Part shown: in pieces, positions 13,129 to 55,820 of the stretch
How positions within the stretch are numbered: the stretch's first letter is position 1
Layout: each line of letters opens with the position of its first letter
NCBI GenBank assembly: GCA_045595365.1
Contig: JAZOAI010000033.1
Span: forward strand, 743 to 64,742
Length of the DNA: 64,000 nucleotides
Direction: 5' to 3'
Origin: Eubacteriales bacterium
GTDB taxonomy: Bacteria; Bacillota; Clostridia; Oscillospirales; JAAYXM01
Translations under genes and position numbers: made by a program
The notes under the pieces: generated by a model
The model's input: only the letters and a program-made list of their open reading frames with translations
The model's database searches: none
What the model was told of the DNA's origin: nothing

Positions 13129-13210
13129 AGCTATCCCCCGTAATTTTTATTCTAACTAGATAATTCTATCACATTTTTGCGGTAATGAACAGATTTTTTT
13201 GAGACAAGCT

Positions 13211-13248
13211 CAAAAAATATCACAAGCAAGTTATCCTGCTTGTGATAT
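13211..13248 (-). terminator. Rho-independent terminator after the VIT gene
   Basis: A 12-bp stem ATATCACAAGCA/TGCTTGTGATAT, followed on the minus strand by TTTTTTGAG. Confidence 0.7.
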
Positions 13249-13272
13249 AATTCGTTTTATGTTATCCGGCAA

Positions 13273-19093: not shown

Positions 19094-19096
19094 TTT

Positions 19097-19585
19097 CTAC
19101 CTCCGTATCCCCATACTTTCGAGTATTTCCTCCTGGCGGGAGAAATGAAGCTTCTCCTCTTCTTCCCCAAGCTCGTGGTCATATCCGAGAAGGTGCAAAA
19201 TGCCGTGAACCGTGAGGAAGGAGATTTCCCGCTCCTCGCTGTGGCCGTATTCCTCCGCCTGCGCCTTAGCGCGAAGGGCGGAAATAACAATATCGCCGAG
19301 CATAACTGTTCCTGTCTCCTCGTCAAGCTCAAGCGGGGAGACCTCTATCTTCTCGCCCGGAGAAAGCTCAAGCATCGGGAATGAGAGAACGTCAGTCGCC
19401 CTGTCAATCTCGCGGTGCTCACGATTCAGCTCGCGGATATTCTCATCATCGGTAATTATAACGCAGATGTCGCACCCCTGCTCCACCTTTTCATAGTCAA
19501 GAGCTGCCGCAACTGCTTTTTTGACGACTTCGTCAAACGTCGCATCTGCTATTTCGTTCACAACTGTTATTCTATGCTCTGCCAT
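19097..19585 (-). CDS. ybeY: rRNA maturation endoribonuclease YbeY
   Basis: HGILHLLGYDH zinc motif; 162 aa. Confidence 0.9.
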   Translation of the reverse strand: MAEHRITVVNEIADATFDEVVKKAVAAALDYEKVEQGCDICVIITDDENIRELNREHREIDRATDVLSFPMLELSPGEKIEVSPLELDEETGTVMLGDIVISALRAKAQAEEYGHSEEREISFLTVHGILHLLGYDHELGEEEEKLHFSRQEEILESMGIRR

Positions 19586-40908: not shown

Positions 40909-41718
40909 TCAAGCCAGGAACAAGGAGTTTTGTTTCAATAATTTCAAAGCATTTTTGTAATAAATCTTATCCCTGTCGTTTTGTGAGATATCCAAGGTTT
41001 CTATGAGCTGTTTTTCCCATGAGGGTCTGTGCCATGGCATATCAGATGCAAAAACAAGTCTGTCGGGCGTGTGCTTGTCCACAAGCTCCTGTGCAATTGC
41101 TTTTGGCATAGTGCCATAGCCGAAGGATAAGTCGAACCAGACATTTTCCCCGCAAAGCTTTTTGATAACCTCTAATCCACAGCTCACCCCACCCCAGTGA
41201 GCCGCGATTACAGGCGAATCAAACCACTTCAAAGCACCCCGAAGATTATCTGGCATACAATGATACGGCGGTGCATAACCATAATCATAGCCAGCATGAA
41301 AGACTGCTATAAGATCAAGCGACGAGATTTTTTTATAAATTGGCTTCATTTTTTCATCGTCAACGTAGAATTTCTGATACTCGGGGTGAAATTTAACGCC
41401 CTTTAGCCCCATTGCTTTAATACGTTCAAGCTCATCAAAAGCATCTTCTGCATCGGGGTGAACAGAGCCGAAAGCGAAAATAGATTTTTCATCATTAATT
41501 TCTTTTGCAAAATTATTCACATTCGTCTGCTGCTTTGGATTTGTGGCGATAGAAAGCACAACAGAAACATCTACACCGTCTTTTTTCATTTCACTCTTTA
41601 AGGATGGGAGAGTTCCCTGGCTTTGAGGCACAAGCCCGCCGCTGGCATATGACAGCTTTCCCATAGCCTTTGAGGCAATATCCTCCGGAAATGCGTGTGT
41701 ATGAAAATCAATAAGCAT
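40909..41718 (-). CDS. Metal-dependent amidohydrolase-fold (TIM-barrel) hydrolase
   Basis: MLIDFHTHAFP, VKFHPEYQ and FASDMPW motifs. The ATG at 41718 is preceded by GGAGACAGG. Confidence 0.65.
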   Translation of the reverse strand: MLIDFHTHAFPEDIASKAMGKLSYASGGLVPQSQGTLPSLKSEMKKDGVDVSVVLSIATNPKQQTNVNNFAKEINDEKSIFAFGSVHPDAEDAFDELERIKAMGLKGVKFHPEYQKFYVDDEKMKPIYKKISSLDLIAVFHAGYDYGYAPPYHCMPDNLRGALKWFDSPVIAAHWGGVSCGLEVIKKLCGENVWFDLSFGYGTMPKAIAQELVDKHTPDRLVFASDMPWHRPSWEKQLIETLDISQNDRDKIYYKNALKLLKQNSLFLA

Positions 41719-41937
41719 AATACCTGTCTCCATTGGTATAAAATTTCACTTCTGTTTATATAATCAATATTTATTTGCGCTTTCATTTTCGGCAGAATCA
41801 TTCTATCATAAAAGCATGTGCTTTTCAACTAAGGCCTTGCCGCCTTGGCGCCCGAAGTATGCAATTTTTCTATCCCCACAAGAAATGCAAAGAAGATAGA
41901 GCTTTGCATTTAGTTTGGCACTTCATTAGAAAGAAAA

Positions 41938-41965
41938 TTCAGGAAGGGCAAATTGCTCTTCCTGA
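41938..41965 (-). terminator. Rho-independent terminator ending the ligase-ilvE-oxidoreductase operon
   Basis: TTCAGGAAG-loop-CTTCCTGAA, followed on the minus strand by TTTTCTTTC. A second hairpin lies at 41883-41911. Confidence 0.65.
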
Positions 41966-41972
41966 ATAGTTT

Positions 41973-42506
41973 TTAGTCTTTATATTCGATTCCTGCGTTT
42001 ATCGCTTTGAGGTTTACCTCAAGGAGGTTTGCGCGCTTTGCGGAAACGACTTTTTTGAGTGAATCCTCAATATTATCGGTTCTCATTCCGCACTCCTTCA
42101 TAAGCTTGCCTGTGATAATCATATTGGCAAGAGTCGGAGCTTCCATCTCCTGCGCCATCTTTGTTGCAGGGATGTAGAAGACCTTTACATCATCACGAGC
42201 TACCTTGCGCTCAATAAGAGTAGAATCGACAAGGATGATGCCCCCCGGGACAACTGCATCCTCATACTTATCAAGCGAGGGAAGGTTCATTGCAACAAGA
42301 ACATCAGGGCTTGAAACTATCGGTGAGCCGACGGGGTCATCAGAGAGGATAACGCTGCAGTTTGCAGTTCCGCCGCGCATCTCCGGACCGTAAGACGGGA
42401 GCCAGCTGAGCTGTCTGCCCTCGAGAAGGCCTTTATATGCAAGAAACTTTCCTGCGAAAAGAATGCCCTGGCCGCCGAAGCCTGCCAAAAGAATTTGAGT
42501 TGTCAT
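41973..42506 (-). CDS. 2-oxoacid:ferredoxin oxidoreductase, gamma subunit
   Basis: [14 protein letters not shown]...[15 protein letters not shown] is the signature of POR/KOR/VOR gamma subunits. Confidence 0.8.
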
Positions 42507-42508
42507 AA

Positions 42509-43261
42509 TTATGCTTCCTCCTTCTCTGCGCTCTTGTCCTTATAAACTCCGAGCGGATAGTACGGAATCATATTGTCATCGACCCACTTGAGCGCATCGT
42601 TCGGTGTGAGCCCCCAGTTTGTTGGACAGGTGGAAACGACCTCGATAAGCGAGAAGCCCTTACCCTCTACCTGATTCTGGAATGCTTTGAGGATAGCCTT
42701 TCCTGCTGCCTTAACATTCTTAACGCTGTTGACTGCAACACGCTCGATATACTGCGGGCCGTCAAGCGTTGCGAGCATTTCGGAAACGCGAATCGGATAA
42801 CCTGCTGTGTTGACATCACGGCCGTACGGCGAGGTCTGTGTAACCTGGCCGGGAAGCGATGTCGGAGCCATCTGGCCTCCTGTCATACCGTAGATTGCGT
42901 TATTGACAAAGATGATTGTTATGTTTTCATTCCTTGCTGCGGCGTGGACAGTTTCTGCCATACCGATGGATGCAAGGTCGCCATCTCCCTGATATGTGAA
43001 GATTACATTCTCCGGAAACGCGCGTTTTAAGCCTGTTGCAACAGCGGGAGCGCGGCCGTGAGCCGCCTCGACCATATCGCATGAGAAATAATCATATGCC
43101 ATAACCGAGCATCCGACCGGAGCAACACCGATAGTTTTGCCCTCAACTCCGAGCTTATCTATTGCCTCTGCAACAAGGCGGTGAATAATACCGTGAGTGC
43201 AGCCCGGGCAGTAGTGAAGCGGTGCATCTGTAAGACTTTTCGGTTTTTCAAATACTACCAT
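42509..43261 (-). CDS. 2-oxoacid:ferredoxin oxidoreductase, beta (TPP-binding) subunit
   Basis: YCPGCTHGI, GDGD...IG, NNAIYGMTGGQ. Confidence 0.85.
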   Translation of the reverse strand: MVVFEKPKSLTDAPLHYCPGCTHGIIHRLVAEAIDKLGVEGKTIGVAPVGCSVMAYDYFSCDMVEAAHGRAPAVATGLKRAFPENVIFTYQGDGDLASIGMAETVHAAARNENITIIFVNNAIYGMTGGQMAPTSLPGQVTQTSPYGRDVNTAGYPIRVSEMLATLDGPQYIERVAVNSVKNVKAAGKAILKAFQNQVEGKGFSLIEVVSTCPTNWGLTPNDALKWVDDNMIPYYPLGVYKDKSAEKEEA

Positions 43262-44322
43262 TATTTGCTACCTCCCTTGACTTCCATAATTTTTGCAAGA
43301 ACTTCTTCCGGTGACGGAATCATACCGCCGACGCGGTTGCAGAGATATACCGGTTTTTTGCAATCTGTTGCAAGGCGGATATCCTCAATCATCTGACCCA
43401 TTGAAAGCTCAACGCTTATAAATGCCTTGACCTTATCGGCAGCTTCCGCAAGAGGCTTCTTCGGGAACGGCCATACTGTAATCGGGCGAATCATTCCGAC
43501 CTTTACGCCCTCCTTGCGAGCTGCAACGACTGCATTCTTCGCAACGCGGGCAGCGATGCCGAAAGCAACAACGCAGTATTCTGCATCGTCCATCATAAAG
43601 CTTTCATATCTTGCTTCATTCTCTTCAATCAGCTTATATCTCTCATATCTCTCGATATTCTTCTTCTCAAGCTCCTCGGGCTTTAAGTAGAGAGAGTTGA
43701 TGATGTTGTGTTCACGCTTGCAGCCGGTGCCTGTAACAGCCCAGTCCTTTTCTGATGAACCGTCATTCTCCTCGGGGAGAACAACAGGCTCCATCATCTG
43801 ACCCATGGTTCCGTCAGCAAGGAGCATTGCGGGCATACGGTATTTCTCCGCAAGCTCGAATGCAAGAGCTGTCATATCAGCCATTTCCTGAACGGATTCG
43901 GGAGTGAGAACTATTATGCGGTAGTCACCGTGGCCGCCGCCCTTTGTGGACTGGAAATAGTCCGACTGTGAAGGCTGAATTCCGCCAAGGCCCGGGCCTC
44001 CGCGCTGAACGTTTACGATAAGTGCGGGAAGGTCTGCACCTGCGATATAGGAGATACCCTCCTGCTTAAGTGAGATTCCGGGGCTTGAAGAGGATGTCAT
44101 AACACGCTTTCCCGTTCCCGCAACGCCATATACCATATTGATAGCGGAAATCTCGCTTTCTGCCTGGAGGAAGGTCCCTCCGATTTTCGGCATTTTCTTT
44201 GCCATATACGCCGCGACCTCTGTCTGCGGGGTTATAGGATATCCGAAGTAGTGGCGGCAGCCTGCACGGATAGCAGCTTCCGCAATAGCTTCGTTACCTT
44301 TCATTAAAACTTTTTCTGCCAT
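43261..44322 (-). CDS. 2-oxoacid:ferredoxin oxidoreductase, alpha subunit (VorB-like)
   Basis: MKGNEAIAEAAIRAGCRHYFGYPITPQTE..., 353 aa. Confidence 0.85.
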   Translation of the reverse strand: MAEKVLMKGNEAIAEAAIRAGCRHYFGYPITPQTEVAAYMAKKMPKIGGTFLQAESEISAINMVYGVAGTGKRVMTSSSSPGISLKQEGISYIAGADLPALIVNVQRGGPGLGGIQPSQSDYFQSTKGGGHGDYRIIVLTPESVQEMADMTALAFELAEKYRMPAMLLADGTMGQMMEPVVLPEENDGSSEKDWAVTGTGCKREHNIINSLYLKPEELEKKNIERYERYKLIEENEARYESFMMDDAEYCVVAFGIAARVAKNAVVAARKEGVKVGMIRPITVWPFPKKPLAEAADKVKAFISVELSMGQMIEDIRLATDCKKPVYLCNRVGGMIPSPEEVLAKIMEVKGGSK

Positions 44323-44335
44323 TTTACCTCACACC

Positions 44336-44542
44336 TCACTTTTCTACAGTAATTACACAGTCAGGGCACATTGTCGCGCAGAACGCACAACCAATGCACT
44401 TTTCCTGGTCTGTAATCTCTGCGGGAGAATGACCTTTTTTGTTGATTTTGTCTTTTGCAAGACGGATGATGCCCTTAGGGCAGGCTGTGACACAGAGACC
44501 GCAACCCTTACAGATGTCTGTGTCGAAGGTTACTTTTGCCAT
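44336..44542 (-). CDS. 2-oxoacid:ferredoxin oxidoreductase, delta subunit (2x[4Fe-4S] ferredoxin-like)
   Basis: Two CxxCxxCxxxCP motifs (CKGCGLCVTACP and CIGCAFCATMCP). Start at the ATG at 44542, 8 nt after AGAGGGG. Confidence 0.8.
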   Translation of the reverse strand: MAKVTFDTDICKGCGLCVTACPKGIIRLAKDKINKKGHSPAEITDQEKCIGCAFCATMCPDCVITVEK

Positions 44543-44559
44543 AAATAACACCCCTCTGT

Positions 44560-45228
44560 TTAAAATATTTTTTTCTGAAGCCGGAGAGGGAAAAATCTCC
44601 GGTTTTTATCCTTTTCGCATAAGCTCTCCATCGCCGTCGTCATAACAAGCGGAACGCCTGCAAGCTCTGATAACTCCTGCGCGAGGGCTTCTGTCTTTTC
44701 GATTGCTTCAATATCCGTTTCACTTCCGATATTGGAGTTGTTGACAATCCCCGTGAACGGAATTCCCGCAGCCGCTTCTATCTCGCGGAAAACCTCGTAT
44801 GCACTTTCTGCATCGCGAGTCAATGGGCGGAAGAAGTTTACGACAAACAGATTGTCAAAATCGTTTTCCTCAAGTATATACGGGCGATATCTCCCCAGCG
44901 CATAAGCTCCGCGGTCATCGCCGCCTATATCCATAACAACGCGGCAATCTCTGCGCTGAACAAGCCCATATACCTCCTGCGGAAGTGCCGGCAAATCAAC
45001 GCTCGTATTTGCAAACGGGAGTGCAACAACCTCGACTCCCGCCGCTTGGAGTTCTTCTAAGCTGTCCTTCGTGCGGAAGTATGGGTTTACCACGTCAATA
45101 TCAGCTATTGCAACCGCATCCCCCTGACTTTTCAGATAAAGCGCGAAGTTAACCGCGATATTCGTTTTTCCGCTGCCGTAGTGTCCGCAAAAAAGAGTTA
45201 TCCTCTTGTTTAAAGAATTACTGACCAA
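44560..45228 (-). CDS. P-loop NTPase of the MinD/ParA/CooC-like (SIMIBI) type
   Basis: A deviant Walker A motif, GHYGSGKTN, near the N-terminus, with DIGGD as a probable Walker B motif. TTG start overlapping the ilvE stop by 19 nt. Confidence 0.55.
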   Translation of the reverse strand: MVSNSLNKRITLFCGHYGSGKTNIAVNFALYLKSQGDAVAIADIDVVNPYFRTKDSLEELQAAGVEVVALPFANTSVDLPALPQEVYGLVQRRDCRVVMDIGGDDRGAYALGRYRPYILEENDFDNLFVVNFFRPLTRDAESAYEVFREIEAAAGIPFTGIVNNSNIGSETDIEAIEKTEALAQELSELAGVPLVMTTAMESLCEKDKNRRFFPLRLQKKIF

Positions 45229-46277
45229 TTGAACTTATCCTCGCATTCGCCCCACTGGATTCCTGTTATCGTGTCATAGAGTTTCTGGCTGACTTCGCCG
45301 ATTGTGTTGTTGTTTATGAGCATAACGTCATCCTTATAGCGAAGCTTGCCGACCGGAGAAATAACCGCAGCGGTTCCTGTTCCGAAGCACTCTTCGAGCT
45401 TGCCTGACTTCTGAGCATCAAGAAGCTCTTCAACGGAAATTTTTCTCTCCTCGACTTCATACCCCCAGGACTTGCAGACTTCGATTACGGAGTTTCTTGT
45501 AATACCCGGGAGGATGCTGCCGGAGAGCTCCGGGGTAACAATCTTGCCGGCAATCTTGAAGAAGATATTCATCGCGCCGACTTCTTCGATGTATTTTCTC
45601 TCAACACCGTCAAGCCAGAGAACCTGAGAATAGCCTTCATCGTGTGCCTTGACCTGAGCAGCTAAGCTTGCTGCGTAGTTTCCGCCTGTTTTTGCAAATC
45701 CCATACCGCCCTTGACAGCGCGGACATAGTCATCCTCAATCCAGATTCCGACAGGAGCAAGGCCACTTGCGTAATACGCGCCTGATGGTGAGAGGATTAT
45801 GATAAAGAGATATGTTTTTGACGGTGCAACACCGAGGAATTCGTCTGTCGCGATAATGAACGGGCGAATGTAGAGCGATGTACCTGGGGTAGTGGGAATC
45901 CAGTCCTCATCGACCTTGACAATAGCCTTGCAAGCCTCAACGAAGAGTTCTTCAGGAAGCTCAGGAATGCAGAGGCGCTTGTTTGTGGCGTTTGTGCGCT
46001 TTGCGTTCATATCGGGCCTGAAAAGGCGGGCTTTTCCGTCTTTTCCCCTGTATGCCTTAAGGCCTTCAAACATTTCCTGCCCATAGTGGAATACCATAGC
46101 GGAGGGGTCAAGGGAAAGCTTTTCATAAGGAACTATTCTTCCGTCATGCCAGCCCTTTCCTTCCGTGTAGTTCATTAAGAACATATGGTCGGTAAAGACC
46201 TTTCCGAAGCCGAGCTTTGACTCATCCTGCGGATGTGCCTTCGGAGTTGTTGTTTTTGTAACCGAAAAGTTATACAT
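45210..46277 (-). CDS. ilvE: Branched-chain-amino-acid aminotransferase
   Basis: FGKVFTDHMF, HYGQEMFEGLKAYR, TGGNYAASL and GTGTAAVISPV are typical of the 355-aa YbgE/YwaA-type IlvE. Confidence 0.9.
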   Translation of the reverse strand: MYNFSVTKTTTPKAHPQDESKLGFGKVFTDHMFLMNYTEGKGWHDGRIVPYEKLSLDPSAMVFHYGQEMFEGLKAYRGKDGKARLFRPDMNAKRTNATNKRLCIPELPEELFVEACKAIVKVDEDWIPTTPGTSLYIRPFIIATDEFLGVAPSKTYLFIIILSPSGAYYASGLAPVGIWIEDDYVRAVKGGMGFAKTGGNYAASLAAQVKAHDEGYSQVLWLDGVERKYIEEVGAMNIFFKIAGKIVTPELSGSILPGITRNSVIEVCKSWGYEVEERKISVEELLDAQKSGKLEECFGTGTAAVISPVGKLRYKDDVMLINNNTIGEVSQKLYDTITGIQWGECEDKFNWSVIL

Positions 46278-46318
46278 TATATATCTCTCCTTTATGTGAT
46301 AAATTTATATCCTTCTTA

Positions 46319-48607
46319 TTAAAGCTTGTTGCGCTGAATCTTTCCGCTTACCGTCTTCGGGAGACTCTCGCGGAAGACAACAAGACGCGGGTATTTATAT
46401 GGCGCGGTATGCTCTTTAACGTATGTCTGGATTTCCTTTTTGAGTTCCTCCGTCGGCTCTGTCCCCTTTGTGAGAACGATGCTTGCCTTAACTATCTGGC
46501 CGCGAACCTCGTCGGGAGCGGCGGAAACTCCGCACTCAAGAACATACGGAAGCTCCATAATAACGCTCTCAATTTCAAACGGGCCTATGCGATAGCCGGA
46601 GGATTTGATAACATCGTCAACACGGCCGACGTACCAATAGAAGCCGTCTTCATCGCGCCAGGCGGTATCGCCGGTGTGGTAGTAGCCGTCGTGGAGAACC
46701 TCAAGGGTTTTTTCCTCATCGCGGTAATAGCCTTTGAAGAGGCCGCAGGGATGCCCGTCTTTTACATTGATGACAATCTCGCCCGTCTCGCCAACTGCCA
46801 CCTCTTCGCCATTTTCGTTGATAAGCTCGACATTATATATGGGAGCCGGCTTACCCATAGAACCGATTTTGTGTGGCGCACCGACCATATTGCCTATAAT
46901 CATCGTGCTTTCTGTCTGCCCAAATCCCTCGATTATCTGAAGCCCTGTCGCCTTTTCAAACTGGCGGTAAACCTCAGGATTGAGAGCTTCGCCTGCCGTC
47001 GTCATATGCTTGACTGATGAGAAGTTGTATTTTGAAATATCTTCTTTGATCATCATCCGGAGCATTGTCGGAGGCGCGCAGAAGGTTGTTATATTATATT
47101 TCTCAAACATCGGAAGGATGTCTGATGCATCAAAGCGGTCAAAGTCGTAAACAAACACTGCTGCTTCGCAAAGCCACTGGCCGTAGAGTTTACCCCACAT
47201 CGACTTTGCCCAACCGGTTTCGGAGATTGTGAAATGAAGGCCGTCGGGGTCGACATTGTGCCAGTATTTCGCTGTATGGAAATGCCCGAGCGGATATTTG
47301 TGGCTGTGCGCCGCGATTTTCGGGTAGCCGGTAGTCCCTGATGTAAAGAACATAAGGAGAAGGTCATCTCCGCAGGGGGAATCTGCAGTCCGCTCAAAGT
47401 GAGAGCTAAAGAGCGTATACTCCTCGTCAAAGCATCTCCAACCGTCACGCTCACCGCCAACGATAATCTTGTTGAGAAGCTCGGGGCATGTTTTTGCCGC
47501 TTCATCTACCTGGTGAGCGGCATCTCCGTCTGCCGTGCAGATTACCGTGTTGACGCCTGCCGCCTGGAAGCGGTATTCAAAGTCGTGAACCTGCAGCTGA
47601 TTTGTAGCAGGGATTGCGATTGCGCCAAGCTTATTTAAACCTATCATCGCAAACCAGAACTGGTAATGACGCTTGAGGACCAGCATAACGCGGTCGCCCT
47701 TCTTGATTCCGAGAGACTTGAAGTAGTTCGCACATCTTGCAGATTCACGCTTTATATCCGCAAACGTAAAGCGGCGCTCCGTCTTGTTTATGTCAATATG
47801 TAGCATCGCAAGCTTTTCCGGCTCACGCTCGGCAAGCGCATCAACAAGGTCGAAGGCGAAGTTGAACCCGTCGGTGTTTTTGAACTTGATTGACGTCGGG
47901 GTTCCGTTTTCGTTTTCTTCGGTGTCGATATAGTTGCGGTAAATTCTCGTTTTTGTATCCTTCTTTACCTCGCGAACCTCGGAAATCGCCTTTGTCGGCG
48001 AAAGCTCAGGAATAGGCTCTCCGGAAGGATTGAGAACGATTGCGTAGAAAACACAATCCGCTCCGTTTGTCGCAATCATGCCGTGTGGCGTGTTACTGTC
48101 ATAGTATATGCTGTCACCGGGGCCGAGAATTTCGCGGTGGTCCCCTATCTGCACGAGCAGATGCCCCTCGACGATTATATCACACTCCTGGCCATCGTGA
48201 GAGGTGAGTTCAATATCAGACTCACTTATGCTATCGTCGTATGAAATTCTGACGTAAAGCGGCTCTGCGATTCGGTTCTGGAACGCATATGCTAGGTTAT
48301 AGTATGTCATCCCGTGAGCCTGGCCTATCTTCTGACCGAGACCTGACCGCGTAACCGTAAACGACTTGAGCGTCGGGCTCACGCCCTCAATAATGTCGGT
48401 AACATTGACGCGGAGAACTGTTGCACATCTGTAAATAAACGCAAAGTTTAAATCGCTCTCTCCCAGCTCGCAGCTGTTGTATTCCTCGACTGTCACTCCC
48501 GTAGCTGACGCCATTTCTTCGGGAGACAATCCCTCAATCTCGCGAAGCTCGCGTATGCGCGCCGCCATTTCTTTGATTTTGTAATCAAGCCCTGTCATTT
48601 TCGCCAT
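46319..48607 (-). CDS. XRE-HTH + cupin + AMP-forming acyl-CoA ligase fusion (paralog 1, behind the Val T-box)
   Basis: Residues ~10-75 form an HTH (IRELREIEGLSPEEMASATGVTVEEYNSCE). Residues ~120-190 form a cupin (DIIVEGHLLVQIGD...GDSIYYDSNTPHGM). The rest is an ANL adenylating enzyme (FFTSGTTGYPK, GFGQTE, YHTGD, SGKIQR). Confidence 0.8.
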   Translation of the reverse strand: MAKMTGLDYKIKEMAARIRELREIEGLSPEEMASATGVTVEEYNSCELGESDLNFAFIYRCATVLRVNVTDIIEGVSPTLKSFTVTRSGLGQKIGQAHGMTYYNLAYAFQNRIAEPLYVRISYDDSISESDIELTSHDGQECDIIVEGHLLVQIGDHREILGPGDSIYYDSNTPHGMIATNGADCVFYAIVLNPSGEPIPELSPTKAISEVREVKKDTKTRIYRNYIDTEENENGTPTSIKFKNTDGFNFAFDLVDALAEREPEKLAMLHIDINKTERRFTFADIKRESARCANYFKSLGIKKGDRVMLVLKRHYQFWFAMIGLNKLGAIAIPATNQLQVHDFEYRFQAAGVNTVICTADGDAAHQVDEAAKTCPELLNKIIVGGERDGWRCFDEEYTLFSSHFERTADSPCGDDLLLMFFTSGTTGYPKIAAHSHKYPLGHFHTAKYWHNVDPDGLHFTISETGWAKSMWGKLYGQWLCEAAVFVYDFDRFDASDILPMFEKYNITTFCAPPTMLRMMIKEDISKYNFSSVKHMTTAGEALNPEVYRQFEKATGLQIIEGFGQTESTMIIGNMVGAPHKIGSMGKPAPIYNVELINENGEEVAVGETGEIVINVKDGHPCGLFKGYYRDEEKTLEVLHDGYYHTGDTAWRDEDGFYWYVGRVDDVIKSSGYRIGPFEIESVIMELPYVLECGVSAAPDEVRGQIVKASIVLTKGTEPTEELKKEIQTYVKEHTAPYKYPRLVVFRESLPKTVSGKIQRNKL

Positions 48608-48636
48608 AATGGAACTCTCCTTCTTTCGGAACTAAG

Positions 48637-48922
48637 AAAAAACACTCGTCCCAAAGTTGATAATCCTTGAGACGAGTGAGATAAACAATACACCCGCGGT
48701 ACCACTCAAATTGTGCAAAAAATGCACCGCTCAGGCTCTACTAAGCCTTATGCCTTTACGCAGCAATCACGGAAAGGTTCTACTGACCGAAATGATTCGG
48801 ATTTCTTCCTCTCAGCTCAGAAGCTACAACCGCAAAGCACGTGCCAGATAGCTCACACCAACCGCTACCTCTCTGAAAGCCCGTTCTCCTTGCGCACTCT
48901 TCGTCAAAGCTTTTAATAATTT
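48637..48922 (-). promoter_or_regulatory. T-box leader, specifier read as GUA (Val)
   Basis: On the minus strand: K-turn and helix (GAAG/CUUC), AGAGAG bulge, distal loop GGUUGGUGUGA, specifier loop 3' side GUU-GUA-G (codon at 48827-48825), T-box AGTGGTACCGCGGG, and terminator CACTCGTCTCAA/TTGGGACGAGTG plus T6. Confidence 0.75.
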
Positions 48923-48928
48923 GTGTTT

Positions 48929-48957
48929 ATTATATATCAACTTTCAAGCTTTGTCAA
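48929..48957 (-). promoter_or_regulatory. Consensus sigma-A promoter for the Val T-box unit
   Basis: TTGACA (48957-48952), 17 nt, then TATAAT (48934-48929). Confidence 0.6.
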
Positions 48958-48981
48958 CCCTTTTCGGAGACATTTACGCCA

Positions 48982-51249
48982 CTAAAGCTTGTTTCGCTGA
49001 ATCTTTCCGCTTATTGTTTTCGGAAGCTCGTCGCGGAATACGACAAGACGCGGATACTTATACGGCGCAGTGTGTTCCTTGACGTAGTTCTGGATTTCCT
49101 TCTTAAGCTCCTCTGTCGGCTCGGTTCCCTTTGTGAGAACAATGCTCGCCTTTACTATCTGCCCGCGAAGGTCATCCGGTTCTGCCGAAACTCCGCACTC
49201 AAGGACATACGGAAGCTCCATTATGACACTCTCGATTTCAAACGGGCCGATGCGATATCCCGAAGACTTGATAACATCGTCAATACGGCTTACATACCAG
49301 AAATATCCGTCTTCATCGCGCCAGGCCGTGTCACCCGTGTGATACATGCCGTAGCGCATACATTCTTCCATTTTTTCATCATCGTCAAGGTACTGCCTGA
49401 AGAGCCCGACAGGGGTATTCTTATCAAGCTTTACGACAATCTCTCCGACCTCGCCGTTTGCCACTGTGTTTCCGTCGGGGTCAACAATATCAATATCATA
49501 CTGCGGAGAAGCTTTTCCCATAGAGCCTATGCGCGGAGTTGTCCCGAAGAGGTTTGCTATGATGAGCGTAGTCTCCGTCTGACCAAACCCTTCCATAATC
49601 TTAAGCCCGGTTGCTTTTTCAAACTGCTTGTAAACCTCGGGGTTTAATGCTTCTCCGGCGGTTGTCATATGGTGGATTGAAGAAAGGTCGAATTTCGACA
49701 GGTCTTCTTTTATAAACATACGCAGCATTGTCGGAGGTGCGCAGAAGGTTGTGATGTTATACTTTGCAAACATCGGGAGAATGTCCGTTGCGGCAAAGCG
49801 GTCAAAGTCGTAAACAAACACAGCGCCCTCGCAGAGCCACTGGCCGTAGAGCTTGCCCCAGAGTGACTTTCCCCAGCCTGTGTCAGATATTGTGAAATGG
49901 AGCCCGTCACGCTCGCAGCAATGCCAGTATTTCGCCGTCACAAAGTGCCCGAGGGCATATGTGTGCTTGTGTTCAACCATCTTCGGATTTCCGGTTGTCC
50001 CTGATGAGAAGAACATAAGCGCAGCATCATCGCCGCACGAGGTGTCTTCGCATCTTGCAAAATTACTTGAAAAGCGGCCGTATTCGCTGTCAAAATCGTG
50101 CCAGCCGTCACGCTTGCCGCCAACGAGGATTTTCGTCGTAAGGCTCGGGCATCGCTCTGCCGCTCGCTCCGCCATCTCTGCAGCATAGTCATCCGCTGTG
50201 CAGATGATTGCAGAAACGTTCGCCGCGCTGAAGCGGTATTCAAAGTCGTGATCCTTAAGCTGATGAGTTGCAGGAATTGCAACCGCGCCGAGCTTATGAA
50301 GCGCGACCATTGCAAACCAGAACTGGTAGTGCCGTTTTAATACTATCATAACGCGGTCGCCGCGCTTTATTCCGAGTGATGCGAAGTAGTTTGCACATCT
50401 TGCCGACTCGCGCTTGATGTCCTCAAACGTAAAGCGGCGCTCGGTCATATTCTTATCCACATGGAGCATCGCAAGCTTCGTGGGAGCCTTTTCTGCAATA
50501 GCATCAACAACATCAAACCCGAAATTGAAGCTTTCGGTGTTTGTGAACTCAATGCTCTCCAAAACGCCCTCCGAGCTTTCCTTGCACTTTACAAACTTCT
50601 CGCAGGAGAGCTTTGTGGCAGGGCGAAGTGAAACCACGCTTTCGCGGATTTCTTCTTCTTTTACATCCTCGCCGGGAAGAACGACTGCACAGAAAACGCA
50701 ATCCTTGCCGTCGACCGCAATCATTCCGTGAGGGGTTGAGCTGTTATAGTAGATGCTGTCGCCCTCGTGAAGAACCTCAACATTTTTCCCAACCTGAACC
50801 TTAAGCGAACCGCTGATGACAATGTCAAACTCCTGGCCGCTGTGTTTTGTAAGGTGGATTGGCTTATTCTGCTGCTCCTCTGAATATTCATATCTTACCC
50901 AATAGGGTTCTGCAATCTTGTTTTTAAATTTGGGCGCAAGATTTGCAATCGAGATTCCCTCCTCCTTTGCAGTCTCCTGCCCTTTTCCCTTGCGGGTGAC
51001 CGTGTAGGAAGAAAGGTGGGCATCCCCTCCGCCGAGAAGCTCGATTATCTCAATCCCGAACGCAAGCGCGCATTTGTGAATAAATGTAAACGGCATATCT
51101 GCTGAGCCACTCTCATATGCCTTGTATTCATCCTCTGAAACTTCGCAGAGCTTTGCAAGCTCCGGGGCGCTCATTCCCATAATCTCCCGCATCTCGCGAA
51201 TTCGGGTCGCGACCTCCGTTAACTGCGTCATTGATTTTTCCAAAGTCAT
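48982..51249 (-). CDS. XRE-HTH + cupin + AMP-forming acyl-CoA ligase fusion (paralog 2, behind the Ile T-box)
   Basis: Same three-domain layout as 46319-48607 and alignable end to end. The C-terminal ~100 aa are almost identical (DVIKSSGYRIGPFEIESVIMELPYVLECGVSA...). Confidence 0.8.
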   Translation of the reverse strand: MTLEKSMTQLTEVATRIREMREIMGMSAPELAKLCEVSEDEYKAYESGSADMPFTFIHKCALAFGIEIIELLGGGDAHLSSYTVTRKGKGQETAKEEGISIANLAPKFKNKIAEPYWVRYEYSEEQQNKPIHLTKHSGQEFDIVISGSLKVQVGKNVEVLHEGDSIYYNSSTPHGMIAVDGKDCVFCAVVLPGEDVKEEEIRESVVSLRPATKLSCEKFVKCKESSEGVLESIEFTNTESFNFGFDVVDAIAEKAPTKLAMLHVDKNMTERRFTFEDIKRESARCANYFASLGIKRGDRVMIVLKRHYQFWFAMVALHKLGAVAIPATHQLKDHDFEYRFSAANVSAIICTADDYAAEMAERAAERCPSLTTKILVGGKRDGWHDFDSEYGRFSSNFARCEDTSCGDDAALMFFSSGTTGNPKMVEHKHTYALGHFVTAKYWHCCERDGLHFTISDTGWGKSLWGKLYGQWLCEGAVFVYDFDRFAATDILPMFAKYNITTFCAPPTMLRMFIKEDLSKFDLSSIHHMTTAGEALNPEVYKQFEKATGLKIMEGFGQTETTLIIANLFGTTPRIGSMGKASPQYDIDIVDPDGNTVANGEVGEIVVKLDKNTPVGLFRQYLDDDEKMEECMRYGMYHTGDTAWRDEDGYFWYVSRIDDVIKSSGYRIGPFEIESVIMELPYVLECGVSAEPDDLRGQIVKASIVLTKGTEPTEELKKEIQNYVKEHTAPYKYPRLVVFRDELPKTISGKIQRNKL

Positions 51250-51279
51250 CTGAAGTTCTCCTTTCTAAAGAAATAAAAT

Positions 51280-51558
51280 AATAAAAACTCGCCTCAAAGG
51301 TTTCTTTGAGACGAGTTCGATAACAAAACCGATACCCGCGGTACCACTCAAATTGTGCAAGAAAATGCACCACTCAGGCTCCAGCAAGCCTTATGCCTTT
51401 ACGCAGCAATCACGGAAGGCGCCTACTCACCGCAAGGGTTTCGGACCTCCAGCTCAGAAGTGATGGGAGAAAACAGTTCACTATCGGGATTTCACCGCCC
51501 CCGACTCTCTGAAAAGCTTCGTTGTTTTTCCGTCTTCGTCACAGCTTTTATTTATTTT
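51280..51558 (-). promoter_or_regulatory. T-box leader, specifier read as AUC (Ile)
   Basis: Same K-turn and GAAG/CUUC helix as the Val leader. Specifier loop 3' side is CCC-AUC-A (codon at 51464-51462). It also has the AGAGAG bulge, distal loop GGCGGUGAAAU, T-box AGTGGTACCGCGGG, and terminator AACTCGTCTCAAAG/CTTTGAGGCGAGTT plus a T run. Confidence 0.75.
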
Positions 51559-51564
51559 TTTATA

Positions 51565-51593
51565 ATTTTACACCCGCAAAAAGCTTTTGTCAA
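51565..51593 (-). promoter_or_regulatory. Sigma-A promoter for the Ile T-box unit
   Basis: TTGACA, 17 nt, then TAAAAT, starting 16 nt after the stop of the upstream gene. Confidence 0.55.
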
Positions 51594-51608
51594 GCACTTT
51601 TTTAATTT

Positions 51609-54065
51609 TTATTCAAGCCCTAAAAGCTTCGCCGCTTCCTCGCGCATTTTATACTTGAGGATTTTCCCCGCTGCGTTCATCGGGAAGCTCTTTACGAACA
51701 TAAAATATCTCGGAACCTTATGGCGCGCTATGTGAGCGTTTCCAAACTCGCGCATCTCATTCTCGTCAGCTTCCTCGCCGTCGTGGAGGATAATCCACGC
51801 ACAGCACTCCTCACCGTATCTCTTGTCGGGAACGCCGACAACCTGAACGTCGCGAACCTTCGGGTTTGTGAGGTAGAATTCCTCTATCTCGCGTGGATAC
51901 AGGTTTTCACCGCCGCGGATAATCATATCCTTGAGGCGGCCTGTGACCTTGTAATATCCGTCAGGAGTTCTGCAGCAGATGTCACCCGAATGGAGCCAGC
52001 CGTCGGCATCTATCGTCTGTGCGGTGGCGCGGGGCATTTTGTAGTACCCCTTCATTATGTTAAATCCACGCGCTACAAATTCGCCGCTCTCCCCATCCGG
52101 AAGCTCTTCTCCCGTTTCGGGGTCAATAATCTTGCACTCAACTCCCGGGAACGCGCTTCCGACAGTTTCAACTCGGTGGTCGATATCCTCATTGACCTCG
52201 CCCATAGTGCAGCCCGGGGATGCCTCAGTCTGGCCGTAAACGCTTATAATCTCCTTCATATTCATCTCATCTGCAGCGCGGCGCATAAGATCTGCAGGGC
52301 AGTTTGCGCCTGCCATTATGCCGGTGCGGATATGAGAGAAGTCTGTTTTTTGGAAATCCGGATGATTGAACATCGCAATAAACATCGTCGGGACTCCATT
52401 GAAGCAGGTTATTCTCTCGTCATTAACACAGGCGAGTGAGGATGCCGGAGAAAAGTATGGCATCGGAAAGAGCGTTCCGCCGTGAGTCATCGTAGATGTC
52501 ATGGAAAGAACCATCCCGAAGCAGTGGAACATCGGAACCTGAATCATCATACGGTCGGCAGTTGAGAGATCCATACGGTCGCCTATCGTTTTGCCGTTAT
52601 TGACTATATTTCTGTGAGTGAGCATAACCCCCTTCGGGAACCCTGTTGTTCCTGAGGTGTATTGCATATTGCAGACATCGTCAGGCTCAACGAGCGATGC
52701 GCGGCGGCGCACCTCTTCCTTCGGAACATCAGCCGCGCGGGCAAGCATATCCTCCCAGGTGAGGCAGCCTGCCATTTCAAAGCCGACTGTTACTACATTC
52801 CTGAGAAACGGAAGGTTTTTTGCATAAAGCGGTTTTCCCGGCTGCAGGGTAGCAAGCTCAGGGCAAAGCTCCTCTATAATCTCGCGATAGTTTGTATCCT
52901 TGCAGTCTTCAATCATAACGAGCGTGTGGGTGTCTGACTGGCGAAGCAAGTATTCAATCTCGTGGATTTTATATGCCGTATTGACAGTTACAAGAACTGC
53001 TCCGATTTTTGTTGTTGCCCAGAAGGTTATAAACCATTGGGGAACATTCGTCGCCCATATGGCAACGTGGTCTCCGGCTTTTACGCCAAGGGAAATGAGA
53101 GCCGCTGCCGCCTCATCAACATCGCGGCGAAATTCAGAATACGTTCTTGTGTAATCAAGTGTTGTATACTTAAAAGCATACTGGTCGGGGTACCTCTCTG
53201 CCATAGTGTCGAGAACCTGAGAGAAGGTCTTGTCTATTACCTCGTACTTTTCCCAGACGTATGTCCCCGTTTTTGCTCTGTTATAGAACACATTCTCGCG
53301 GGAATTCTTTATTCCGCCGAGATTCTCAATGTAATTTGAAAAATGCGTCAGAACAATGTCTGCATCGTCAATTTCATCGTTCCAGGCAACAGAGATAAAG
53401 CCGTCATAGTTAAGCGACGAAAGCGCATCTATAACCTCTCCCACAGGGAGGTCTCCCTCTCCGATGAGGACATTTGTTTCACCCTTGCGGTCACCGAGTC
53501 TTACATACTTAATATATGCGCCAAGGTTTGTGATTGTATCCTCCGCACTTTCCCGTGCGCAGAAATATGTTTCTCTGACATCCCACGCCGCGCCGAGAGC
53601 TGCACTTGAGAAGAATTTTATTATGTCAATTACATTTTCCGTGTGCGAAAGATAGTCTGACGTTGAGAGAAGAATTTGCACATCTGAGCCTTCTGCCCGC
53701 TCAATTGCAGGAGAAAGCCTTTTTTCGAGAAGCCTAAAATCCGTTTCCTTTTCAATATGGACAATCACGCTCGGGATACCTGCACTAAGTGCCATATCAA
53801 CATATCTTTTTACAGCTTCTCCGTCAGCCTCGTCTGAATCAAGAGCATACGGATATATAAGCGACGACACCTCAAGGGCGCGGTTTAAAAGCTTGCGTTT
53901 TGAATCAGAAACCTTGCCGCTTCTGAGAATGCTGTCAGGATGATTCATCCTTTCTTTTTCGGCATCGTATATCTCAAAGCCTGAAAATCCATAGTCATAA
54001 GCATACTTGCAGACATCGAGAAAGGTGGCACACCTGATGTTTTTTGTCGAAAAGGTGAATTTCAT
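51609..54065 (-). CDS. Fusion protein: xylose-isomerase-like TIM-barrel domain + AMP-forming acyl-CoA ligase
   Basis: The N-terminal ~270 aa resemble sugar-phosphate isomerase/epimerase (AP_endonuc_2) TIM barrels (GFSGFEIY, VIVHIEK, LPVGEVIDALSSLNYDGFISV). The C-terminal ~550 aa form an ANL ligase (YTSGTTGFPKGVMLTH, YGQTE, WLHSGD, RGGENLYP, GKILK). The ATG at 54065 lies 6 nt after GAGGAGG and 1 nt after the upstream stop. Confidence 0.75.
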   Translation of the reverse strand: MKFTFSTKNIRCATFLDVCKYAYDYGFSGFEIYDAEKERMNHPDSILRSGKVSDSKRKLLNRALEVSSLIYPYALDSDEADGEAVKRYVDMALSAGIPSVIVHIEKETDFRLLEKRLSPAIERAEGSDVQILLSTSDYLSHTENVIDIIKFFSSAALGAAWDVRETYFCARESAEDTITNLGAYIKYVRLGDRKGETNVLIGEGDLPVGEVIDALSSLNYDGFISVAWNDEIDDADIVLTHFSNYIENLGGIKNSRENVFYNRAKTGTYVWEKYEVIDKTFSQVLDTMAERYPDQYAFKYTTLDYTRTYSEFRRDVDEAAAALISLGVKAGDHVAIWATNVPQWFITFWATTKIGAVLVTVNTAYKIHEIEYLLRQSDTHTLVMIEDCKDTNYREIIEELCPELATLQPGKPLYAKNLPFLRNVVTVGFEMAGCLTWEDMLARAADVPKEEVRRRASLVEPDDVCNMQYTSGTTGFPKGVMLTHRNIVNNGKTIGDRMDLSTADRMMIQVPMFHCFGMVLSMTSTMTHGGTLFPMPYFSPASSLACVNDERITCFNGVPTMFIAMFNHPDFQKTDFSHIRTGIMAGANCPADLMRRAADEMNMKEIISVYGQTEASPGCTMGEVNEDIDHRVETVGSAFPGVECKIIDPETGEELPDGESGEFVARGFNIMKGYYKMPRATAQTIDADGWLHSGDICCRTPDGYYKVTGRLKDMIIRGGENLYPREIEEFYLTNPKVRDVQVVGVPDKRYGEECCAWIILHDGEEADENEMREFGNAHIARHKVPRYFMFVKSFPMNAAGKILKYKMREEAAKLLGLE

Positions 54066-54066
54066 A

Positions 54067-55458
54067 TTAATCCTCCTCAAAAACAATCTTGTTGAGTGCA
54101 TTGATATATGCACGGATGCTTGCCGCTACAATGTCAGTGGAAATTCCGTTGCCTGAATAGAGCTTCCCGTGGCTGCGCAGACGGACAAGAGCAGATCCGA
54201 GAGCTTCCTTGCCCTCTGTAACCGCCTGAATCTGGAAGTCGTCAAGCTCGTAGTGGTAACCCACGCTCTGCTCAATAGCGCGGAAAACAGAGTCAATCGG
54301 CCCGTCACCCGTGCTGACTCCGTGAAGGAGCTTATCGCCCGTGCGGAGAGTTACCTGCGACATAGAGTCTGCGAGGTTTCCGCAAGTTGTTGTGTAACTC
54401 TCGAGATGATATTTTGACGGCGCCTGCATAGCAAAGCTTGCAATAAGAGCTTCAAGCTCTTTTGCTCCGACACTTCCCTTTTTCTCACAAACCTGAGAAA
54501 GCGCGGAATGAACATTCCCGCAATCCTCATCTGTCAGGTCATAGCCGAGGATCCGCGCAGCTTCTGCCACCTGGGTGATTGTGCTGTCTGTTGTGAGGAA
54601 AATCGAGCTTTTTGAACCGTCTTCTGATGTTTCTTCAGTCTTAACGCTGTGGTTGATTTTCTTAAGCAACGCTTCCGTATCCGAATGAACCTGAGTGTTT
54701 TTAAGCCCTGTGAAGATGCCAAAGCTCTCCCCTCTTTTGCTGATCGCATCGGAAAGCTCGCCCGTTATGAGGGTTGATGAACCGCAGAGGGCGCACTTAA
54801 GCCCCGAAGCACCTGCTTCGATCGCTGAAATCGCTGTTGCGACCGCCATTCTGAGGTTGTTTGAAACAGAAACACAGACCGAAACCGAAACCTTACCCGA
54901 AATCCTGCCCACAAGCTCTGCCATTTCTGCAGGGAGGAAAACTCCCGCATCATCACAGAGAGTTACGCTTCCTGCACCGGCGCGCTCAGCTTCTAAAACG
55001 CAATTTTCGAGAAACTCGAGGTTTGCGCGGGTTGCATCAAGCGCAACAAACTCAACATCGCTGCATAATGCTTTTGCATTTGCTACAAGCTCTGAAATTT
55101 TAGTGAGCATTTTTTCAGCCTTGATGTGGTATGTATACTCCATCGAAACAGTCGATGTGGGAAGCGCGACCTGAAGCCGCGGGTGTGCAGCGTCTTTTAT
55201 GCACTCCCACGCCTGTTCCGCTTCGGCTTCTGAAAAACCGACAGGAATTGCAACGATGCAATCCTTGAGGGTTGAGGAAATTGTTTTATATATAATGGTG
55301 TCCTCGCGAAGCTTTTTAATCGGAGCGAGCTCAACAACGTCAACTCCGCAAGCCTCCGCGCAAGCCGCAATAGCTGTTTTTTCACGGAAAAGAAGATTTG
55401 CCTCGCGCTCGTTTGCAAGGTTTTTGAGAGTAATGTCTGCAATAGTGATTTTTTTCAT
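54067..55458 (-). CDS. LeuA/CimA-like protein with a degenerate catalytic barrel and a conserved C-terminal LeuA regulatory (dimerisation) domain
   Basis: The C-terminus (GDGPIDSVFRAI...QAVTEGKEALGSALVRL...GNGISTDIVAASIRAYINALNKI) matches the LeuA allosteric domain. In the N-terminal barrel, DITLKNLANE replaces DTTLRDGEQ and VSVSNNLRMAV replaces HxHNDxGxAxAN. ATG at 55458, 8 nt after AAAGGAG. Confidence 0.7.
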   Translation of the reverse strand: MKKITIADITLKNLANEREANLLFREKTAIAACAEACGVDVVELAPIKKLREDTIIYKTISSTLKDCIVAIPVGFSEAEAEQAWECIKDAAHPRLQVALPTSTVSMEYTYHIKAEKMLTKISELVANAKALCSDVEFVALDATRANLEFLENCVLEAERAGAGSVTLCDDAGVFLPAEMAELVGRISGKVSVSVCVSVSNNLRMAVATAISAIEAGASGLKCALCGSSTLITGELSDAISKRGESFGIFTGLKNTQVHSDTEALLKKINHSVKTEETSEDGSKSSIFLTTDSTITQVAEAARILGYDLTDEDCGNVHSALSQVCEKKGSVGAKELEALIASFAMQAPSKYHLESYTTTCGNLADSMSQVTLRTGDKLLHGVSTGDGPIDSVFRAIEQSVGYHYELDDFQIQAVTEGKEALGSALVRLRSHGKLYSGNGISTDIVAASIRAYINALNKIVFEED

Positions 55459-55499
55459 CGAAAAAACTCCTTTCAAAATTCAAGGGTTCGGGCTTTCGC

Positions 55500-55785
55500 A
55501 ACAAAAAACGCCTTCGCCTCATTGTTGCTTCAAAGAGACGAAAGCGTTAAATTTAAAATTTAACTTTCCGCGGTACCACTCTTTTTCATCCGTTTCGGAT
55601 GCCCTTAGATGCCAGCACATCTTAACTCTGTTACGGGAGTGCCCGTCTGCCCCTACAATTTGAAGTTCACGGCAGCCGCTCCGCGGTGAGTTCTGCAAGT
55701 CTTTTCCAATGCCTTGCACCAACCGGCATCTCTCTTCAGATAAAAGAATTTTGCATACTATTCCGCATCACTGCGTTTTTATTTG
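55500..55785 (-). promoter_or_regulatory. T-box leader, specifier CUC (Leu)
   Basis: A canonical Stem I: K-turn GUGAUG/CGGA, 5' AAUAGUA, AGAGAG bulge, distal loop GGUUGGUGCAA, and specifier loop GAA-CUC-A (codon at 55690-55688). It also has T-box AGAGTGGTACCGCGG and a 14-bp terminator AACGCTTTCGTCTC/GAGGCGAAGGCGTT plus T6. Confidence 0.85.
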
Positions 55786-55791
55786 GTAAAC

Positions 55792-55820
55792 ATTTTATCA
55801 TATAGCTTCTCTTTTGTCAA
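55792..55820 (-). promoter_or_regulatory. Sigma-A promoter (extended -10) for the Leu T-box unit
   Basis: TTGACA, 17 nt, then TAAAAT, with TGA immediately upstream of the -10 element. Confidence 0.55.

Follow-up and report, generated by a model that had tools for sequence, protein, structure and literature searches.

A cluster of three T-box-gated units predicted to rebuild leucine, isoleucine and valine from branched short-chain fatty acids

Anaerobes of the rumen and gut have been known for about 60 years to need or assimilate isobutyrate, 2-methylbutyrate and isovalerate, and the physiological pathway by which such acids become amino acids has been known since the 1960s; the bacterial genes responsible are largely unassigned. 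In the ilv-leu type operons of Firmicutes, such as that of Bacillus subtilis with its Leu-specifier T-box, the leader reads the uncharged tRNA of a branched-chain amino acid (BCAA) and releases the genes that make that amino acid. A similar logic would apply to the locus described here, which occupies the region from 41.9 to 55.8 kb of a 64,000-nucleotide stretch of DNA (hereafter the window) from contig JAZOAI010000033.1 of the Eubacteriales bacterium assembly GCA_045595365.1. This region is a single minus-strand gene array in which three units, each led by a T-box, encode three acyl-CoA ligases, the branched-chain aminotransferase IlvE, a P-loop NTPase and a four-subunit branched-chain 2-oxoacid:ferredoxin oxidoreductase (VOR).

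The conversion of branched acids to amino acids has been documented physiologically in rumen organisms (PMC2812497, PMC7356843), and the types of enzyme that it would require have been described separately. MacsMa, the medium-chain acyl-CoA synthetase of Methanosarcina acetivorans, favours 2-methylbutyrate (PMC10455477). The Michaelis constants of MbcS, the methylbutyryl-CoA synthetase of Staphylococcus aureus, lie below 10 uM with the alpha-branched acids 2-methylbutyrate and isobutyrate but exceed 500 uM with isovalerate (PMC10026030). VOR is described as reversible in the portion of 10.1101/401489 that cites its reference 24.

We propose that the super-operon probably rebuilds leucine, isoleucine and valine from the matching branched short-chain fatty acids. 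In the first step, a dedicated AMP-forming ligase would convert the acid to its CoA thioester, with ATP split to AMP and pyrophosphate. A shared four-subunit VOR would then combine the acyl-CoA with CO2 and reduced ferredoxin to give the 2-oxoacid, which a shared IlvE would transaminate to the amino acid. The predicted substrates are isovalerate for a ligase of FadD type fused to a TIM barrel, 2-methylbutyrate for the first of two Macs-type paralogues fused to helix-turn-helix (HTH) and cupin domains, and isobutyrate for the second. Each ligase would be gated by its own sigma-70-type promoter and transcription-attenuating T-box, so that the uncharged cognate tRNA releases the entry step, and VOR and IlvE would be released by the Val checkpoint. 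We infer these substrates, this direction of flux and this response to tRNA from the RNA elements, specifiers, covariation, domain content, homologies and synteny observed in the window and its relatives.

Promoters, leaders and specifier triplets

Each unit begins with a promoter and a T-box leader, as an initial annotation made from the sequence alone had proposed, and the three top matches of a 16-kb consensus scan are the promoters at the heads of the three units. All features of the window given below lie on the minus strand unless otherwise stated. Promoter P1 (55792-55820) reads TTGACA-17-TAAAAT, agrees with the consensus at 11 of 12 positions and is TG-extended; its -35 and extended -10 elements are kept across 37 orthologous leaders. 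P2 (51565-51593) has the same hexamers and spacing (11/12), and P3 (48929-48957, TTGACA-17-TATAAT) matches the consensus at 12/12 positions.

All three leaders match the Rfam T-box model (RF00230, gathering threshold 93 bits) over its full length (model positions 1-219). Leader 1 (55531-55780) scores 126.1 bits, above the threshold. Leaders 2 (51304-51551; 79.1 bits, E 4e-16) and 3 (48665-48916; 86.9 bits, E 4e-18) fall below it, mainly because the S-turn of their specifier loops is non-canonical, both lacking the usual AGUA/GAA form. All three leaders carry the T-box sequence AGUGGUACCGCG, and their antiterminator helix falls within the match to the model. At the end of each stands a terminator composed of a hairpin and a U-run, located at 55503-55546 in leader 1 (by folding, an 11-bp stem and U6), at 51285-51318 in leader 2 and at 48643-48678 in leader 3.

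The Infernal search, which the initial annotation had named as a check on the leaders, therefore placed leader 1 above the gathering threshold and the other two below it, and these two were rescued by covariation. Pairs in which both sides have changed number 32 of 38 in the class of leader 1, 24 of 37 in that of leader 2 and 36 of 46 in that of leader 3. Over the three leader classes 93-96% of alignment cells are paired (95-96% for leaders 2 and 3). Leaders 2 and 3 are real T-boxes despite their low scores because their orthologues, from 60 and 79 genomes respectively, show these compensatory changes.

The specifier triplets lie on the 3' side of the Stem I specifier loop, just 5' of the basal helix. 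Leader 1 carries CUC (Leu, 55690-55688) in a canonical GAA-CUC-A loop, leader 2 carries AUC (Ile, 51464-51462) in the loop CCC-AUC-A, and leader 3 carries GUA (Val, 48827-48825) in the loop GUU-GUA-G. At least 596 species-representative genomes carry a relative; the triplets were compared over 80 related loci from such genomes, with genes classed by BLAST against the window proteins and leaders aligned by the gene that they precede. Every leader of an Ile-type ligase reads AUC (60/60). Among the leaders of Val-type ligases 76 of 79 read GUA and three read GUC, and the leaders of the LeuA-like gene of the Leu unit read CUC in 32 of 37 cases, CUG in four and CCC in one. The bases flanking the triplet vary freely among orthologous leaders whereas the triplet is fixed; therefore the triplet itself is under selection. 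That specifiers are fixed for each ligase orthogroup bears out the earlier suggestion of one ligase per amino acid under its cognate T-box, and the leaders would respond to uncharged tRNA-Leu (CUC), tRNA-Ile (AUC) and tRNA-Val (GUA).

Other readings of the leaders were rejected. To read leader 2 as UCN (Ser), the codon would have to sit inside the basal helix and three different isoacceptors would be needed among close relatives; for leader 3, the triplets UUG and UGU are not conserved among orthologues. The T-box bulge is UGGU in all three leaders. An A73 discriminator is common to bacterial tRNA-Leu, tRNA-Ile and tRNA-Val, with which the UGGU bulges are consistent, but they cannot tell the three tRNAs apart. 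In the closest relative of the window (L001, ligase 94% identical), the specifier of the Leu-type leader is CCC (Pro) rather than CUC, at about position 1250 with the T-box motif at 1447; an error of sequencing or assembly, or else a recent mutation, could account for it.

The spacing from the stop codon of one unit to the -35 element of the next is only 16-25 nt. No terminator was found between the three units of the array (55.8-41.9 kb), and for that reason the leaders are to be seen as serial checkpoints on transcripts arriving from upstream. The array closes at an intrinsic terminator (41928-41967), a strong hairpin (z = -3.5) followed by UUUUCUUUCU, which agrees with the terminator initially placed near 41.95 kb. 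The window contains no tRNA genes and no T-boxes beyond the three.

The Ile and Val units and the shared enzymes

The initial annotation assigned one AMP-forming ligase to each unit. Three such ligases are present, but their N-terminal fusions, an HTH plus cupin in two and a TIM barrel in one, had been overlooked. By their Pfam domains, the Ile unit encodes an HTH(XRE)-cupin-Macs-type acyl-CoA ligase of 755 aa (48982-51249), a predicted 2-methylbutyrate-CoA ligase, and the Val unit encodes one of 762 aa (46319-48607), a predicted isobutyrate-CoA ligase. The two are paralogues, 63% identical, with the two-domain ANL fold (AMP-binding, E 1e-63; AMP-binding_C, E 1e-20). Their closest solved relative is MacsMa (3ETC; E 6e-190 and 4e-183), to which the Ile-type enzyme is 51% and the Val-type enzyme 52% identical over 533-539 residues. 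The best NCBIfam match of both is MbcS, at 442-444 bits against an equivalog cut-off of 850. The poor performance of MbcS with isovalerate would explain why a ligase of another class, the FadD type, is found in the Leu unit. By this rationale, the alpha-branched acids would be handled by paralogues of Macs/MbcS type and the beta-branched isovalerate by a different enzyme.

Between 59 Ile-type and 80 Val-type orthologues, 18 positions are fixed differently, 7 of them in the ligase domain and 11 in the HTH-cupin modules. Five of the seven ligase-domain positions fall in the segments GW[G/A]KS[L/M]W and GFGQTE.T[L/M]II[A/G]N. In acetyl-CoA synthetase (Acs) both segments line the acyl pocket, and the Gly of GFGQTE stands where Acs has the Trp that confines its substrate range to acetate. 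The Ile-type enzyme has Gly460 (GWGKS, as in MacsMa) where the Val-type enzyme has Ala467 (GWAKS), a difference that fits the larger pocket predicted by the salvage model for a C5 than for a C4 acid.

The cupin is recognised by Pfam in both ligases (Cupin_2, 44-45 bits against a cut-off of 27.2), and HTH_3 reaches 25.3 bits in the Val-type and 20.1 bits in the Ile-type protein against a cut-off of 23. Within orthogroups, 42-51% of the cupin is near-invariant and its triad, His137-x3-Glu141...His175, is invariant. Identity between the window paralogues is 34% in the HTH, 52% in the cupin and 73% in the ligase domain. The predicted structure of the HTH-cupin part is of low confidence (predicted local distance difference test, pLDDT, 66.5), and Foldseek matched it to the enzymes HppE, HEPD and MPnS and to the regulator 1Y9Q, all with TM-scores below 0.3. 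The search for an operator, which covered 59, 79 and 37 aligned orthologous promoter regions of the module, found no conserved palindrome there; conservation is limited to the -35 element, the extended -10 element and an upstream A-tract. There is thus no support for the idea that the HTH regulates its own promoter. In one related locus (L043), an XRE-type HTH_3 domain is fused to the beta and alpha chains of serine dehydratase (479 aa; 12446-13885, minus strand), which hints that HTH-enzyme fusions recur within the clade.

Behind the Val-type ligase, the last unit continues with ilvE, the gene of a P-loop NTPase and those of a delta-alpha-beta-gamma oxidoreductase, an order given in the initial annotation and now confirmed with Pfam and NCBIfam. 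IlvE (45210-46277) is a bona fide equivalog by its NCBIfam scores (NF009897, 512 bits against a cut-off of 307; TIGR01123, 430 against 250). The subunits of VOR are delta (44336-44551, 2x[4Fe-4S] ferredoxin-like), alpha (43261-44322), the beta subunit that binds thiamine pyrophosphate (TPP; 42509-43261) and gamma (41973-42506). By Pfam the four carry POR_N/PFOR_II, TPP_enzyme_C, POR and 2x[4Fe-4S] domains. Judged by its alpha subunit (NF005507 VorB, 561.9 bits against a cut-off of 399), the oxidoreductase falls in the NCBI VorB subfamily.

The P-loop NTPase (222 aa, 44560-45228) has weak CbiA/ParA matches in Pfam and an invariant Walker A motif, GHYGSGKT. NCBIfam returned no match for this protein, Pfam is marginal, and the fold gives the SIMIBI class only; the AlphaFold2 model has a pLDDT of 83 and was matched by Foldseek to SRP54/FtsY, HypB and MipZ with probability 1.0 and TM-scores of about 0.6. 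All homologues are annotated as hypothetical. The gene always adjoins VOR, with median gaps to its neighbours of 0 and 17 nt, and because this position is invariable we would guess that the protein helps in VOR assembly. The last part of the P-loop gene, immediately ahead of VOR delta, contains a strong hairpin (44577-44606, GAAGCCGGAGA...TCTCCGGTTTT). It has a terminator score on the plus strand and a chance Rfam match. On the coding strand, where it lacks a U-run, the hairpin might serve in the processing or stability of the mRNA.

Among the Oscillospirales and related Clostridia of human and animal guts, at least 596 species-level genomes carry the module. In the commonest order, T-box(Ile)-ligase and T-box(Val)-ligase are followed by the P-loop gene, VOR delta-alpha-beta-gamma and IlvE, and then by T-box(Leu)-LeuA-like, the TIM-ligase and an Amidohydro_2 gene, with median gaps of 0-17 nt within units. 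In dozens of species the genes for the ligase, VOR and IlvE show translational coupling and synteny. The window has a rearranged order, in which the Leu unit leads, IlvE precedes the P-loop gene and the Amidohydro_2 gene stands apart. A survey of gene neighbourhoods had been put forward in the initial annotation as a check; in the 80 loci examined, the combination of ligase, VOR and IlvE behind BCAA T-boxes recurs. The ligase-oxidoreductase-IlvE salvage route that had been proposed is thus supported by sequence and comparative evidence, namely the kinship of the ligases with MacsMa and MbcS, the VorB assignment, the IlvE equivalog and synteny.

The Leu unit and competing explanations

The initial annotation read the Leu unit as a ligase. 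The ligase is present; the LeuA-like gene in front of it and the Amidohydro_2 gene that usually accompanies it had been missed. The LeuA-like protein (463 aa, 54067-55458), encoded between the first T-box and the first ligase, combines an HMGL-like barrel (E 2e-25) with a LeuA_dimer domain (E 1e-30) in Pfam. Its best score is 250.9 bits, against LeuA cut-offs of 517-748 (532 for the best model). Alignment with the isopropylmalate synthases 3EWB and 3RMJ has DITLKNLANE in place of DTTLRDGEQ and VSVSNN in place of HCHxD, and the catalytic Arg/Asp and HxH metal-ligand positions are not conserved over 40 orthologues. A genuine isopropylmalate or citramalate synthase is ruled out by this loss of motifs and by the family cut-offs. 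Near-invariant residues make up 38% of the C-terminal allosteric/dimerisation domain and 15% of the barrel, and the regulatory domain matches LeuA equivalog models and not citramalate synthase models. The protein, which belongs to a family that NCBI names 'hypothetical protein', would appear to be a pseudoenzyme that keeps a leucine-binding regulatory domain.

The ligase of the Leu unit (818 aa, 51609-54065) is in Pfam a fusion of a xylose-isomerase-like TIM barrel to a FadD-type AMP-forming ligase, and is the predicted isovalerate-CoA ligase. It scores 676 bits with NF009233 (cut-off 832), and its relatives in the PDB are FadD and feruloyl-CoA and malonyl-CoA synthetases. In relatives its gene always lies 3' of the LeuA-like gene, with a median gap of 2 nt. 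The near-invariant share is 14% in the TIM domain and 53% in the ligase domain. The only detectable alignment of the TIM domain, a weak one with MJ1311, sets YVRLGD against HVHAHD and ISVAW against ISIE, which tentatively suggests, from this single alignment, that the metal site has been lost. The Amidohydro_2 protein (274 aa, 40909-41733; Pfam) is encoded 3' of the TIM-ligase in 20 loci, with a median gap of 4.5 nt, and its gene is the last of the Leu unit in most relatives. In the window this gene is detached behind the operon terminator, has a promoter-like site of its own (41828-41800) and is without its own T-box.

Two further loci were anchored on the LeuA-like gene. In one (L083), a stand-alone Leu unit lies behind a canonical Leu T-box (132.3 bits). 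Directly 3' of that unit, and unrelated to the module, a ZMP/ZTP riboswitch (5089-5171; 54 bits, above its gathering threshold) precedes a pyruvate formate-lyase-like gene and its activase. In the other (L081), the LeuA-like gene, TIM-ligase, IlvE, P-loop gene and VOR form a single operon, which ties the ligase of the Leu unit directly to VOR and IlvE. The RF00230 search of this locus found no T-box. Instead, the sequence 5' of the LeuA-like gene (9744-9968) contains a consensus promoter, a ribosome-binding site, a 32-codon open reading frame, MNTALFAAYILLINAIILLIGEHSKNSAICRV, with nine Ile/Leu in codons 10-20 (ILLINAIILLI), and then a hairpin and U-run. This looks like a candidate leader-peptide attenuator that would answer the same signal by another mechanism. 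At the 3' side of VOR (18270-20538), an HTH-cupin protein (183 aa) and a Macs-type ligase (561 aa) are encoded by separate adjacent genes, so the parts work together and their fusion is not required. The pocket of this Macs-type ligase, GWLKSLW, has a bulkier residue than the window fusions, which suggests yet another acid specificity.

It is possible, though rather unlikely, that the Leu unit does not serve isovalerate. Its proteins might instead start from some other precursor of leucine, for example a hydroxy-, unsaturated or conjugated C5/C6 acid, and convert it in several steps, or the ligase might take a different acid whose product is processed by the accessory barrels. Three accessory enzyme or pseudoenzyme modules that isovalerate activation would not need are co-inherited with the ligase, and among the relatives of this FadD-like family there is no characterised isovalerate enzyme. 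The LeuA-like barrel, however, has lost its metal and catalytic motifs and the TIM domain has apparently lost its metal ligands, and the poor conservation of both barrels relative to the ligase and allosteric domains suggests non-catalytic roles. The joining of the unit with IlvE and VOR in L081 is also what would be expected if its product were a VOR substrate.

A use of the ligases in lipid synthesis appears less probable still. The ligases would scavenge branched acids as primers for branched-chain fatty acids when BCAA are scarce, with amino acid synthesis secondary or absent. The family that best matches two of the ligases, MbcS, has been shown to supply primers to FabH (PMC10026030), and six loci have a T-box-gated Val-type ligase without an adjacent VOR. 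In most genomes, however, VOR and IlvE, neither of which primer supply requires, show translational coupling to the ligases. Working catabolically, these two enzymes would moreover use up the amino acid whose scarcity switches them on, and three amino-acid-specific switches would be hard to rationalise for lipid primers. The two uses, in lipid and in amino acid synthesis, are not mutually exclusive.

A catabolic operon, in which energy would be gained as IlvE and VOR break BCAA down to acyl-CoAs and the ligases work backwards or recycle acids, is hardly credible: an oxidoreductase of the same type does act oxidatively in Clostridium sporogenes (porA; 10.1101/401489), but T-box induction upon amino acid shortage is the opposite of catabolic need, AMP-forming ligases, which give off pyrophosphate, do not serve to conserve ATP, and the cluster has no phosphotransacylase, kinase or ADP-forming synthetase. 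Induction by uncharged tRNA makes sense only for the biosynthetic direction, and this logic, together with the AMP-forming ligases, supports the preference for that direction already expressed in the initial annotation.

Several observations weigh against the salvage of BCAA from branched acids as the function of the cluster. The HTH-cupin ligases fall below the MbcS equivalog cut-off and are relatives of MbcS rather than equivalogs, and the best NCBIfam matches of VOR beta and gamma are generic 2-oxoacid:ferredoxin oxidoreductase (OFOR) models, all below cut-off. The prediction of isovalerate for the TIM-ligase comes by elimination and from the Leu T-box alone, without a characterised close relative, and a simple ligase model leaves the pseudo-LeuA, the TIM domain and Amidohydro_2 unexplained. 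The shared VOR and IlvE belong to the Val-gated unit alone, so that starvation for Ile or Leu by itself is not obviously inducing; the genome may have further copies elsewhere, the Val checkpoint may leak, or the hierarchy may be deliberate. In six of the related loci, each from a different species (L039, L043, L057, L060, L065 and L075, at about 10.0-12.3 kb in each), a solitary Val-type HTH-cupin ligase follows a GUA T-box; neither VOR nor IlvE lies within 10 kb, and the neighbours are unrelated (a major facilitator superfamily transporter, a murC-like gene, ldh, ATP-binding cassette permeases and polA). Finally, among the close homologues examined, all carriers of the module are uncultured metagenome-assembled genomes (MAGs).

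A working guess for some of the accessory parts is that the pseudo-LeuA and the HTH-cupin modules sense end-products or substrates. Tentatively, control might then be two-tiered, with the T-boxes setting transcription and a small-molecule sensor for each ligase tuning activity after translation. For Leu, the sensor would be the pseudo-LeuA, which would have kept only the leucine-binding allosteric domain; for Ile and Val, the HTH-cupin modules specific to each paralogue would take this part. Should this hold, a LeuA-derived pseudoenzyme would have found a new use, and CoA ligases that regulate themselves would form a new class.

The cluster is flanked upstream by housekeeping genes (the dcw cell-division cluster, an aldose epimerase and a DUF188 gene) and downstream by the Amidohydro_2 gene and then trkAH. 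Weak Rfam matches within the region (Plastid-petD, snoRNAs and others) were dismissed as chance.

Meaning of the cluster and comparison with known systems

The cluster offers a complete, testable gene set in which the cognate T-boxes annotate which ligase serves which amino acid. It bears on gut cross-feeding of branched short-chain fatty acids, on the reading of BCAA auxotrophies predicted in MAGs, and on the use of branched volatile fatty acids as feed supplements for ruminants. In databases, the module proteins carry only generic or 'hypothetical' names, and four undescribed architectures, the HTH-cupin-ligase, the TIM-ligase, the pseudo-LeuA and the VOR-linked SIMIBI NTPase, have thousands of unnamed homologues. 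The initial annotation knew of no described module of this kind, and we likewise found no description in the searchable full-text literature, a coverage that stops short of subscription journals. Neither the chemistry nor the T-box mechanism nor any of the enzyme families is new; it is the genetic and regulatory wiring and the protein architectures that appear to be so.

Like the T-boxes of ilv-leu operons, the leaders have a Stem I with a specifier loop, a UGGN bulge, and a terminator and antiterminator. Unlike those operons, the cluster would encode a salvage route of ligase, VOR and IlvE rather than the de novo acetolactate/isopropylmalate pathway, and it places three different specifiers in series, each gating a substrate-specific entry enzyme. 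The Macs-type ligases share with MacsMa the Gly (GFGQTE) in place of the pocket Trp of Acs, and GWGK is common to MacsMa and the Ile-type paralogue; MacsMa, however, has no HTH-cupin extension and no known linkage to a T-box or VOR. MbcS of Staphylococcus aureus feeds fatty acid synthesis and, unlike the window ligases, is unfused and unlinked to VOR or IlvE. The HTH-cupin portion has the same two domains as known proteins with XRE-HTH and cupin (1Y9Q; HppE, HEPD, MPnS), but here they are fused to a CoA ligase. The LeuA-like protein retains the barrel and LeuA_dimer architecture of LeuA, but its metal and catalytic motifs have been replaced and it is not a member by function. The VOR of the window is a four-subunit delta-alpha-beta-gamma OFOR like that of anaerobic archaea, but unlike the VOR known from the literature searched, including that on reductive carboxylation of branched acids by rumen bacteria and methanogens, it is wired to ligases, IlvE, a SIMIBI NTPase and amino-acid-specific riboregulators.

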